Part shown: positions 36,001 to 39,000 of the stretch, piece after piece
How positions within the stretch are numbered: position 1 is the stretch's first letter
How the letters are laid out: each line of letters starts with the position of its first letter
Origin: a virus
Lineage: Duplodnaviria; Heunggongvirae; Uroviricota; Caudoviricetes
Length of the DNA stretch: 45,081 nt
Reading direction: 5' to 3' (one strand)
Virus record (IMG/VR): IMGVR_UViG_2563366897_000006
Program-made: the position numbers

Positions 36001-39000
36001 GCTGGATGGTTGGAAGAGAGTATATTCACGTATCACCAGACGGTAATCCAAAGCCTTCCAGTGAATGTATGTATAACAGAAAAGCAATAGATGCCTGGGT
36101 CGCCTCAATGAAAAACAAACAACCCAGGTGATTTAATATCATGAAATATGTAAGCTCGTATCGCTCTTGGGCGTCTGGAGGTATCGATGGATAAAGTCAA
36201 ATATCCAACAGGCGTCGAAAACCACGGCGGCACATTACGCATCTGGTTTAATTTTAAAGGTAAACGTGTCAGGGAAAATCTTGGTGTCCCTGACACTGCC
36301 AAGAACAGGAAGATCGCCGGGGAACTGCGGACATCAGTATGTTTTGCCATCCGCACAGGAAGCTTTGATTATGCTGCACAGTTCCCTGACTCCCCCAACC
36401 TTCAGGCTTTTGGGGTAAGTAAAAAAGAAATTACGGTGAAGGAACTTGAAGAAAAGTGGCTGGATCTGAAACGAATGGAAATCTCTGCAAATGCATTCAA
36501 TCGCTATGAATCCGTTGCAAGAACGATGGTTCCGAAAATTGGAGGCAGTAAACTGGTGTCATCGGTAACCAAAGAGGAATTGCTGTATATCAGGAAAGAT
36601 TTGCTGACCGGGTATCAGAATTCAACGAAAAACAAAGCAGCAGCAAAAGGACGGAGCGTCGTTACTGTAAATTATTACATGACGACAATCGCTGGAATGT
36701 TTCAGTTTGCTGCAGATCACGGTTACTTAGAAGCAAATCCCTTCCAGGGAATTAAGCCTCTTAAAAGAGCCAGGGCAGAGCCAGATCCGCTAACTCGTGA
36801 CGAATTTATTCGCCTGATAGATGCTTGCCGACATCAGCAGACGAAAAACCTGTGGTCATTGGCTGTGTACACAGGAATGCGTCACGGTGAACTGGTCTCC
36901 CTGGCCTGGGAAGATATCGATCTGAAGGCAGGAACAATTACCATCAGGCGCAATTATACGAAACTTGGTGAGTTCACTCTACCGAAAACTGAAGCAAGCA
37001 CAAACAGGGTTGTGCACCTTATCCAGCCCGCTATCAGTGTCCTGAAAAATCAGGCTGAAATGACAAGACTGGGTAAGCAGTACAACATCAAGGTGCAACT
37101 ACGTGAATATGGACGTTCAGTGAACCATGAATGTACTTTCGTGTTTAACCCTCAAGTGGTTAGAAAAAGCGAACAGGTAGGTTTTGTCTACAAAGTCGAT
37201 TCTGTAGGTGACTCATGGGAAACAGCCATTAAGCGTGCAGGGATCAGGCATCGAAAGGCATACCAGTCACGACACACTTATGCGTGCTGGTCATTATCTG
37301 CCGGAGCAAACCCAAGCTTCATTGCCAGCCAGATGGGCCATGCAAGTGCCCAGATGGTATTCAATGTATACGGAGCATGGATGACTGACAGCAATGCAGA
37401 ACAGATCGCAATGCTGAATCAGAAGCTGACAGATTATGTCCCAATGATGCCCCATAGTCACCAAAGTGACACCAGAGGCTTATTAAAATCAGTAAGTTAA
37501 TCCTTAATACCCGTCATGTTAACTGCGTGGAGGGTAACACCACGCTTTATGCCCTGCCGAAACCCGAGGTTGTCCTGCGCTGGCGTGAGCAGACCACAGA
37601 TGACTTCCGCTTCTGTTTTAAGTTTCCGGCGACCATTTCGCATCAGGCAGCATTACGGCATTGCGATGATTTAGTGACTGAATTTTTGACCCGCATGTCA
37701 CCGTTGGCTCCGCGCATTGGACAATACTGGCTGCAACTGCCTGCCACATTCGGCCCACGGGAGCTGCCTGCGCTTTGGCATTTTCTCGATTCTCTTCCCG
37801 GTGAATTTAATTATGGGGTGGAAGTCCGCCATCCACAGTTTTTCGCCAAAGGGGAAGAGGAACAAACGCTTAATCGCGGTTTACATCAGCGCGGCGTTAA
37901 TCGGGTGATTTTTATTAGACACGTTTAAATACACCATCTAAAACGATACAATCTAGGGCATCAGTTTTGAGGTGAACAATGAAACGTGCCATTTCTTACA
38001 TCAGGTTTTCATCTGAGAAGCAATCCCGAGGTGATTCATTACGCCGACAGTCTAAGATGGTTAATGACTGGCTTAAGGCTCATCCTGAGTACTACCTTGA
38101 CCAAGATTTATCTTTTCGTGATTTGGGGGTGAGTGGGTTCACTGGTAAGCACTTGAAAGGTGGCTTAGGTGACTTTTTAACCGCTATCGAGAAAGGGCTT
38201 GTTAAAGCTGGTGATACGCTCTTGATAGAATCTCTTGACCGTCTGTCACGTCAAGATGTAGACCAAGCAAGTGAGCTACTCAGAAACATTCTTCGCTCTG
38301 GTGTAGATGTGGTCACCTTGTCCGATGGTGAACATTACACAAAGGAAAGCTTAAAAGACCCGTTAGCTCTGATTAAAAGCATTTTGATAATGCAGCGGTC
38401 GCATGAGGAGAGTTTGCGTAAATCTGAACGTATCCAAGCTGCATGGGATGCAAAGAAAGAAGCTGCTAAAGCCGGTATCAAGATTTATAAGCGTTGTCCT
38501 GCATGGCTTAAGCTTAATGATGACCGTAAGACCTTCTCTGTGATACCTGAGAAGGTAGAAACTGTGAAGAGGTGCTTTCAATTACGGTTAGAGGGTAAGT
38601 CTATTTGGGAGATTGTCAGGACTCTTAATGATGAAGGTCACCAGACACTTAACCAGTACAAAGCAGGTAAGTTTGGTCAAACCTCAGTGCAAGACCTTCT
38701 GAAAAATCGCTCTGTAATTGGTTACTTCACACCTAAAGGCTGTGAGGAGATAGCTGGTTATTTCCCCCCTATCATCCCTGAGACTGATTTCTACAAAGTC
38801 CAGCAACTATCATATTCTCGTTATGGAAGAAAGCCTGCTTCAGATAAACCATTGAGTGTGAATCTTTTCAAAGGTGTTATCCGTTGTTCTGAATGTGGTC
38901 ATGCTTTGATTATCACAGGCTTTAGCGATACAAGAAACGGGATTTATCGTTGTCCTCTTCGTAATGAAAACCGTTGTAGTGCTAAAGGACTTTCACGTAA

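Follow-up and report, generated by a model that had tools for sequence, protein, structure and literature searches.

An internal fragment of the Escherichia coli gene yecE between a lambdoid prophage and a serine-recombinase element

The IMG/VR virus record IMGVR_UViG_2563366897_000006 (Caudoviricetes), a stretch of 45,081 bp that is referred to here as the window, carries a short piece of the Escherichia coli gene yecE between a tyrosine integrase gene and a large serine recombinase gene. How did the middle of a host gene come to lie between two such enzymes? A sequence-only reading of the window had proposed that two unrelated site-specific recombination systems targeted the same gene at different positions and left an internal fragment of about 130 codons. 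Based on alignments, junction sequences and occupancy counts, we conclude with high confidence that yecE was interrupted by two independent site-specific integrations, so that a central piece of 394 bp is now flanked by a mobile element on either side. The element on the left is called prophage 1 and the one on the right element 2. The coordinates of the features are collected in Table 1.

The yecE fragment and its two attachment sites

Positions 37519-37912 match nucleotides 86-479 of the 819-nucleotide yecE gene of strain K-12 over 394 bp without a gap. The nucleotide identity is 98.2%, all seven mismatches are synonymous, and the encoded protein is 100% identical in amino acid sequence to residues 30-159 of K-12 YecE. 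The open reading frame (ORF) at 37527-37928 (plus strand) matches Pfam DUF72 (PF01904) with an E value of 1.3e-31, covering profile positions 22-138 of 217. The GC content is about 0.49 in the fragment and only 0.36-0.44 in the element on its right. The sequence-only reading had described a yecE-like coding segment from about 37512 to about 37910, followed by AT-rich DNA. Both the segment and the change in composition were borne out, and the two limits fall within a few bases of the attachment (att) core at 37519-37529 and of the crossover dinucleotide TT at 37911-37912. The integrase ORF on the left ends at 37500 and the ORF of the large serine recombinase on the right starts at 37979, in agreement with the order that had been read.

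No start codon in frame with the fragment is present 5' of 37527. In a near-identical genome, the annotation pipeline PGAP calls the fragment an incomplete DUF72 pseudogene. The start of this pseudogene was placed at 37482, inside the integrase gene, because the phage-derived bases 37501-37518 extend the yecE frame with similar residues (T-R-H-V-N-C-V, compared to A-R-H-F-N-C-V in yecE).

The window ends inside both elements, and the genome of E. coli JNEC-KY173 (NZ_AP045169.1) was used as a stand-in for the outer ends. The two sequences are 99.75-99.97% identical, apart from one insertion sequence (IS) and a short stretch of 96% identity beside it. In JNEC-KY173, yecD is immediately followed by the first 96 bp of yecE, which adjoin the distal (tail-fibre) end of prophage 1, and yecN is immediately preceded by the last 340 bp, which adjoin the distal end of element 2 (11.2 kb in this genome). 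The sequence-only reading had expected the 5' and 3' parts of yecE where each element has its outer end, and they were found there; the three pieces sum exactly to the intact gene. Mapped onto this genome, prophage 1 extends past window position 1 by about 5.5 kb, and element 2 past position 45081 by about 4 kb.

The junction of prophage 1 (site 1) is marked by the 11-mer TTAACTGCGTG, which was found at the integrase-side junction, at the yecD-side junction in JNEC-KY173 and once in intact yecE (nucleotides 86-96). It is the reverse complement of CAYGCAGTTAA, the att core published for yecE-integrating Shiga toxin (Stx) phages (PMC5592225). The gene is known as an integration locus of Stx1, Stx2 and non-Stx lambdoid phages, the att of which comprises 21 bp (PMC8112680), and it is listed among the genes disrupted by prophages (PMC3603311). 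The sequence-only reading holds overall and is refined here, as its left site is an already published yecE att site. Phage DNA just outside the core mimics yecE at 17 of 21 positions, a partial likeness that is usual for pairs of phage and bacterial attachment sites (attP and attB).

The junction of element 2 (site 2) is located about 385 bp downstream of site 1 and is of a different kind. Identity to yecE stops at 37912, and the putative crossover TT corresponds to yecE nucleotides 478-479. The core junctions are identical in five genomes, with GGGTGATTTT followed by TATTAGACACGTTTAAATACAC on the recombinase side and GTGTATTTAGACCTTGATGATTTT followed by AGACAGCC on the other side. When the element-derived halves are joined, they form a 46-bp attP, in which the outer arms GTGTATTTAGAC and GTTTAAATACAC are inverted around the central TT. 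In this dyad, 15 of 22 mirrored positions pair, and the outer 12-nucleotide arms match at 11 of 12. The sequence common to attB and attP is limited to TGATTTT, and there is no target duplication. The same attP was found uninterrupted in a metagenome contig (L019, see below). The recombinase has the N-terminal motif YIRFSSEKQ with the catalytic serine. Large serine integrases exchange strands at a 2-bp crossover and leave no long duplication, and the predicted layout of site 2 is as expected for such an enzyme. It constitutes a second attB within yecE, defined here at base resolution and apparently unreported before.

Phages of the phiC31/Bxb1 type share with element 2 the Resolvase, Recombinase and zinc-ribbon architecture of the enzyme, an attP of about 46 bp with an imperfect dyad and a central dinucleotide, and a short attB inside a gene. 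Unlike these phages, element 2 has a quarter of a phage genome size and is devoid of virion and lysis genes.

The proposed course of events starts from yecE as a conserved, non-essential gene between yecD and yecN. Prophage 1 would have been integrated by its tyrosine integrase at the known site, with duplication of the 11-bp core at both ends. Element 2 would have been integrated by the large serine recombinase at the attB centred on TT, in a conservative exchange with a 2-bp crossover between the dyad-symmetric attP and yecE. With a distance of about 385 bp between the sites and both junctions of its own retained in each element, either one should be able to excise without the other. If both did, yecE would be intact again, since the fragment still encodes wild-type residues. 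The catalytic steps (from established recombinase mechanisms), the order of insertion and the present-day competence for excision are inferred.

Frequency of single and double occupancy

Occupancy was counted in 5426 complete E. coli genomes with probes of 200 bp across each site, and a site that was not intact was scored as interrupted. Site 1 was interrupted in 523 genomes (9.6%) and site 2 in 287 (5.3%). The serine recombinase gene was found in 297 genomes and was always chromosomal. This number is close to that of interrupted sites 2, indicating that one recombinase family explains essentially all insertions there. Each element also occurs alone in other genomes, in which the remaining yecE is contiguous. 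These single occurrences point to two independent insertions at two distinct sites and sustain the central claim of the sequence-only reading, namely that two unrelated recombination systems used different positions of the gene.

Genomes with both elements were counted with a synthetic two-junction query, which had to match at both junctions with the right spacing. Both sites were joined in at least 16 genomes, with identities to the query of 72-99.6%. This number is a lower bound, as it requires blastn-detectable integrase and recombinase ends, and the genomes are phylogenetically non-independent. Under independence, 27.7 double genomes are expected, compared to the 16 observed (hypergeometric P(X<=16) = 0.008). 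Double occupancy is therefore not enriched; it recurs at a chance level, in a hotspot that is used by two systems which are also found singly. With a known hotspot gene, two positions, two recombinase families and a rate close to chance, it is ordinary.

Could both elements instead be one composite island that was inserted once, with two recombinases and the yecE piece as an internal passenger? The elements are adjacent, and apart from the complete genomes with both, the same two-element order was seen in 5 of the 8 IMG/VR loci that were found via the tape-measure protein (TMP) of element 2. However, single elements are far commoner (523 and 287 genomes, compared to 16), and the frequency of the pair is no higher than that of chance co-occurrence. 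In double-occupied loci, the tyrosine integrase alleles are 75-100% identical and the serine recombinase alleles 93-100%, with a joint identity of 72-99.6%, so that the paired alleles vary. We regard a composite island as very improbable. That the yecE segment was carried by a mobile element, as captured host DNA or extended attP homology, is scarcely credible and already largely refuted: the phage side of the core does mimic yecE (ACCCGTCATG versus GCCCGCCACT, in frame T-R-H-V versus A-R-H-F) and prophages with yecE-derived att copies are documented (PMC8112680), but the 394 bp continue the outer 5' and 3' parts in collinear order and complement them exactly, genomes with one element keep the rest of yecE contiguous, and the excised attP of L019 is without yecE sequence.

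Some observations weigh against two independent integrations by mobile elements as set out above. The outer ends were located only in the near-identical JNEC-KY173, and the strain of the window itself could differ. The deficit of double genomes could hint at a mild interference between the sites. An IS21-family insertion in the tape-measure gene of prophage 1 means that this copy is probably tail-defective and not infectious. Finally, the excised form of element 2 is represented by a relative (L019), while none of the window copy was observed.

The double occupancy adds a second attachment site to a well-known prophage hotspot. A result of 'yecE occupied' in polymerase chain reaction (PCR) typing of Stx phages can have two unrelated causes, given that site 2 is interrupted in 287 of 5426 genomes. 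The tmRNA gene ssrA also offers several integrase-specific positions, at which tandem or adjacent islands accumulate. Unlike ssrA, yecE is protein-coding and is destroyed by both insertions, and the enzymes belong to two unrelated recombinase superfamilies.

Gene content and presumed lifestyle of element 2

Element 2 is a conserved unit of 11.2-12.2 kb and not a random prophage stump. This refines the sequence-only reading in a second respect, as the right-hand element is a defined unit of 11-12 kb and not a prophage. The family is present in about 5% of complete E. coli genomes. Nine independent copies measure 11.2-12.2 kb when IS elements are discounted, and all have one gene order. The recombinase gene points inward and is followed on the opposite strand by the genes of a tail tube initiator homolog and the TMP, ORFs of 69, 235 and about 100 amino acids, and a variable arm. 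This arm holds a replication initiator gene and genes for a Dam methylase, an HNH protein or an AP2 protein, followed by about 1 kb of non-coding DNA up to the other junction. The approximately 4 kb of element 2 past the window were read in locus L001 and contain rep with its iterons, dam, a regulatory region and the other att junction. The ORFs of the recombinase, TMP, initiator, rep and Dam are intact.

Identities within the family range from 92 to 100% for the recombinase, 51 to 100% for the TMP, 71 to 89% for the initiator and 24 to 88% for the 235-amino-acid ORF. Judged from these sequences, the family is diversifying with its genes intact. In about 90 of the 297 carriers, the recombinase gene is split at nucleotide 1080 by the IS21-like ISEc12, and all of these copies are 88.3% identical to the query. 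One of them is located in strain N1718 (L007, 16548-20657), which also has an IS2 in the TMP gene. The carriers of a split recombinase look like one clonal lineage with an immobilised element.

The rep product (320 amino acids) matches replication-initiator (O-like) families of PHROG, and four tandem 22-bp iterons are located inside the rep gene (L001 29109-29196; L019 35-116). Element 2 is thus predicted in silico to possess an initiator and an origin of replication of its own. Among its ORFs, Pfam and PHROG revealed no genes for capsid, terminase, sheath, tube or lysis. The small ORFs between 42680 and 45081 yielded no matches in Pfam, PHROG, PADLOC or NCBIfam, and their order is conserved across family members. 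Among these small ORFs, which are without recognisable domains, no candidate for a recombination directionality factor was identified. A tail assembly chaperone was not identified either, and the ORFs of 69 and 235 amino acids upstream of the TMP gene are without matches. For the 235-amino-acid ORF, this holds for PDB, Pfam, PHROG, NCBIfam and PADLOC; its AlphaFold2 model is poor (pLDDT 59, pTM 0.39, shallow alignment). Database homologs of the ORF number more than 3000 and occur in E. coli, Salmonella, Shigella and E. fergusonii. The label 'transposase' at NCBI has no domain support and looks unfounded.

An excised form was searched for in 241 million metagenome records with a 22-mer that is present only in attP, CTTGATGATTTTTATTAGACAC. 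A single contig was found, L019 (ERZ1090866 NODE_760), with a length of 11,473 bp. Its gene order is Dam-attP-recombinase-initiator-TMP plus the remaining ORFs, with rep split across the two contig ends. The recombinase is 92% identical, and yecE sequence is absent. The attP together with the split rep indicates that L019 is an excised copy of a relative of element 2 in circularly permuted form. The contig has a coverage of about 6x, its 3' end consists of Nextera adapter and there is no exact terminal overlap, so that the evidence for circularity is the permuted order of the genes together with attP, the closure not being exact. The attP yielded no matches in IMG/VR.

Other candidates were rejected. 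Two contigs of 11.3-11.7 kb with the 235-amino-acid gene (L020, L022) are integrated copies with short yecE flanks. A third (L021; ERZ28618459 scaffold_3362, 11,330 bp) has unrelated flanks and is not an excised circle. It has the same gene order and a 506-amino-acid recombinase, but flanks other than yecE and no att motifs, which points to a sister lineage that integrates at another site. The faecal virome record MT836130 (12.7 kb) has only a 30%-identical recombinase in common with element 2. A recombinase scan of species-representative genomes returned one 548-bp contaminant contig only.

The two tail genes connect element 2 to the virulent Felixounavirus phages. For the initiator, the PDB match is chain A of 9NDY ('Tube initiator protein gp018'; E value 2e-129), with near-identity from residue 5 to about residue 190 and divergence over the last approximately 65. 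Its amino acid identity to ORF066 of the Felixounavirus VpaE1 is 80-83%, and ORF066 directly follows the TMP gene of the phage. The TMP matches gp017 of PDB 9NDY (2e-63) and is about 28% identical to Felixounavirus TMPs over the full length, with termini that are more conserved than the middle. The first approximately 45 codons are 64-77% identical, and the last approximately 18 about 72% in two variants. The VpaE1 homologs ORF065 (TMP) and ORF066 are adjacent and in the same order as in element 2.

At the DNA level, megablast matches of the TMP and initiator genes to phages are confined to a 544-bp patch (Table 1), with an abrupt loss of similarity on both sides. Such a sharp mosaic boundary points to a recent recombination. 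The GC content of element 2 (38.8-39.5%) is the same as in VpaE1 (38.9%) and clearly lower than in the yecE fragment (about 49%). A further stretch of 46 nucleotides, located past the window upstream of dam-rep, is 93% identical to the intergenic region between ORF043c and ORF044 of VpaE1 and contains the inverted repeat AGATATC-N7-GATATCT. It may be copied phage regulatory DNA. A second, shorter match of the regulatory region is located at about 14732-14773 of VpaE1.

These features resemble those of the PLEs (elements of the phage-inducible chromosomal island-like kind) of Vibrio cholerae, which are satellites of the virulent myophage ICP1 and are integrated by a large serine recombinase (PMC12987554). 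The chaperone, TMP and hub protein encoded by PLEs replace those of ICP1, resulting in chimeric tails; the TMP, chaperone and BhuB of PLE11 are 20%, 20% and 41% identical to those of ICP1, and putative tmp genes were noted in other putative satellites (PMC12987554). Element 2, too, is a small island that has a large serine recombinase and a replication initiator of its own and lacks genes for capsid and terminase, and it encodes a TMP and an adjacent baseplate-proximal protein that are homologous to those of a virulent myophage. It differs from PLEs in its host (E. coli), in the presumed helper (Felixounavirus), in having a tube initiator and not a hub protein as second tail protein, and in having one domain with about 94% DNA identity to the phage, which is far closer than in PLEs. 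With 11-12 kb it is also smaller than a PLE, the size of which is about 18 kb. Element 2 plausibly works like a PLE; the likeness is architectural, and membership is not claimed.

Phage-inducible chromosomal islands (PICI), capsid-forming PICI (cfPICI) and P4-like satellites likewise reside in the E. coli chromosome as islands of about 10-15 kb and carry an integrase along with a replication module. Of their markers, no HK97-type capsid, portal, protease, primase, alpA, terS or sid/psu/delta was found in the ORFs of element 2 with Pfam and PHROG. Such satellites typically have tyrosine integrases and known helpers that are temperate phages, whereas the integration enzyme of element 2 is a serine recombinase.

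Taken together, we propose, as an evenly balanced judgement, that the element 2 family comprises undescribed E. coli satellites that are always located in yecE and live as parasites of virulent Felix O1-type myophages, in the fashion of PLEs. Upon infection, element 2 would be switched on through the copied phage regulatory site, excise and replicate from its own iteron origin. Its TMP and tube initiator would substitute into tails built by the helper, and recombination would hold the N-domain of the initiator at about 94% identity to that of the phage. As a result, element 2 would spread and the phage yield would fall. Tails with the TMP of element 2 (682 amino acids, compared to 742 in the phage) would be shorter by roughly 9 nm. 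No published description of element 2 was found in the literature searched, the coverage of which is incomplete and no proof of novelty.

Alternatively, element 2 could be an anti-phage defence island, the tail look-alikes of which poison the tail assembly of Felixounavirus without the element being packaged. Interference with tail assembly is known from mobile elements (Tai, PMC11364771; Rta of PLE11, PMC12987554), and the initiator would suit a dominant-negative subunit, as its N-terminal 180 codons are near-identical to the phage and its C-terminus differs. However, PADLOC reported only an orphan methyltransferase and a sub-threshold LmuB fragment, and no known defence model was matched except this methyltransferase. 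A full-length TMP with phage-like termini, a replication module and a recombinase also exceed what a decoy needs. The roles of defence and satellite are compatible, and PLEs perform both. A purely defensive island is a possible, though doubtful, explanation.

The family could also be the decayed remnant of a full-size temperate phage at site 2 that has no life of its own, which we consider unlikely. In line with decay, only two tail genes are recognisable beside several orphan ORFs, the recombinase is disrupted by an IS21 in about 90 copies and the TMP gene by an IS2 in some, and the attP junction occurred once in the metagenome records and never in IMG/VR. On the other hand, the nine independent copies keep their size and order despite identities of 51-74% for the TMP and 24-62% for the 235-amino-acid ORF. 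Recombinase, TMP, initiator, rep (with its four iterons) and Dam are intact, and an excised circular form is indicated by L019. No full-size relative was seen at site 2, and the closest recombinase of a temperate phage is only 36% identical.

If the satellite proposal is true, a case of a satellite that remodels the tails of a virulent phage would become available in the model system E. coli. Strain-to-strain differences in resistance to Felix O1-type phages could then also have an explanation; these phages have been suggested for the biocontrol of Salmonella (PMC12768965).

Features of the window and properties of prophage 1

Table 1. Coordinates of features of prophage 1, yecE and element 2 (positions in the window unless a locus or contig is named; aa, amino acids)
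Feature	Position	Strand	Evidence or remark
Prophage 1, part in window	1-37518	-	lambdoid siphophage of about 41-43 kb (JNEC-KY173 copy roughly 41 kb)
IS21-family insertion	6524-8929	-	IstA-like 7337-8836, IstB 6585-7340; Pfam IstB_IS21 9.5e-62
Excisionase of prophage 1	35895-36131	+	Pfam DUF1233 9.5e-33; excisionase in JNEC annotation
Tyrosine integrase, 437 aa	36187-37500	+	Pfam Arm-DNA-bind_2 9.8e-24, Phage_integrase 3.1e-18
Integrase-side att core TTAACTGCGTG (attL, lambda convention)	37519-37529		11-mer shared with yecE
Internal yecE fragment	37519-37912	+	nucleotides 86-479 of 819, codons about 29-160; alignment and Pfam DUF72
Inferred central crossover dinucleotide TT, recombinase-side junction	37911-37912		attP dyad centre
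attP-derived half-site TATTAGACACGTTTAAATACAC, arm GTTTAAATACAC at end	37913-37934		pairs with GTGTATTTAGAC at other element end
Large serine recombinase of element 2, 507 aa	37979-39502	+	Pfam Resolvase 1.6e-20, Recombinase 8.6e-15, Zn_ribbon_recom 3.5e-7
Tail tube initiator homolog (Pfam 'Dit-like'), 257 aa	39517-40290	-	longest ORF reaches 40311; PDB 9NDY match
Phage-like DNA patch, 544 bp	39732-40275		megablast, 94-95% identical to 211 virulent Felixounavirus records
TMP, 682 aa	40448-42496	-	Pfam TMP_3 3.4e-20; PDB 9NDY gp017
Element 2 ORF, 69 aa	42680-42889	-	conserved, no recognisable function
Element 2 ORF, 235 aa	42913-43620	-	conserved, no recognisable function
Element 2 ORF, 101 aa	44193-44498	-	conserved, no recognisable function
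Element 2 ORF, 75 aa	44645-44872	-	conserved, no recognisable function
Element 2 ORF, 73 aa	44860-45081	-	conserved, no recognisable function
Element 2 regulatory region with phage-like stretch	L001 about 30649-30706		about 3 kb beyond window end
attP in L019	2948-2969		contig of 11,473 bp

Prophage 1 is an ordinary yecE-integrating lambdoid prophage. Its late genes are located on the minus strand, and the integration module at the right end is on the plus strand. The annotation of the JNEC-KY173 copy comprises gpJ, tail genes, an HK97-type head, a P27-family small terminase, lysis genes, Q, replication genes, the repressor, xis and int. The prophage shares the gene and the core with the yecE-integrating Stx and other lambdoid prophages, such as P12 of O145:H28 strain 112648, the O26:H11 Stx2 phages and EH297. 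The presence of a tyrosine integrase and an excisionase at the junction, the lambdoid gene order and a tRNA trio downstream of Q are common to them as well. Unlike in Stx phages, no stx is annotated in the near-identical copy, and unlike in other yecE lambdoid prophages, the window copy has an IS21-family insertion in the tape-measure gene.

This insertion splits the gene into ORFs at 4642-6501 and 8873-10303, both of which retain TMP domains, and the segment 6524-8929 is missing from JNEC-KY173. The virion gene set is thus complete in the JNEC-KY173 copy, but not in the window copy with its split tape-measure gene. Judged from its sequence, prophage 1 with the insertion may still be able to excise.

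The three tRNA genes are located on the minus strand at 22437-22686 and comprise Arg-tct, Arg-tcg and a tRNA with the anticodon CAT, which is assigned to Met by ARAGORN and to Ile by PGAP. Their position downstream of the Q antiterminator is that of stx in Stx phages. Between the tRNA trio and the holin gene, only a pseudogene of 159 nucleotides is annotated in the JNEC-KY173 copy. The region 37270-37530, which comprises the last 262 nucleotides of the integrase plus the junction, is 100% identical in many genomes, including O104:H4 outbreak-lineage strains. This identity indicates that site 1 of yecE is occupied in the latter by a prophage with this integrase allele.

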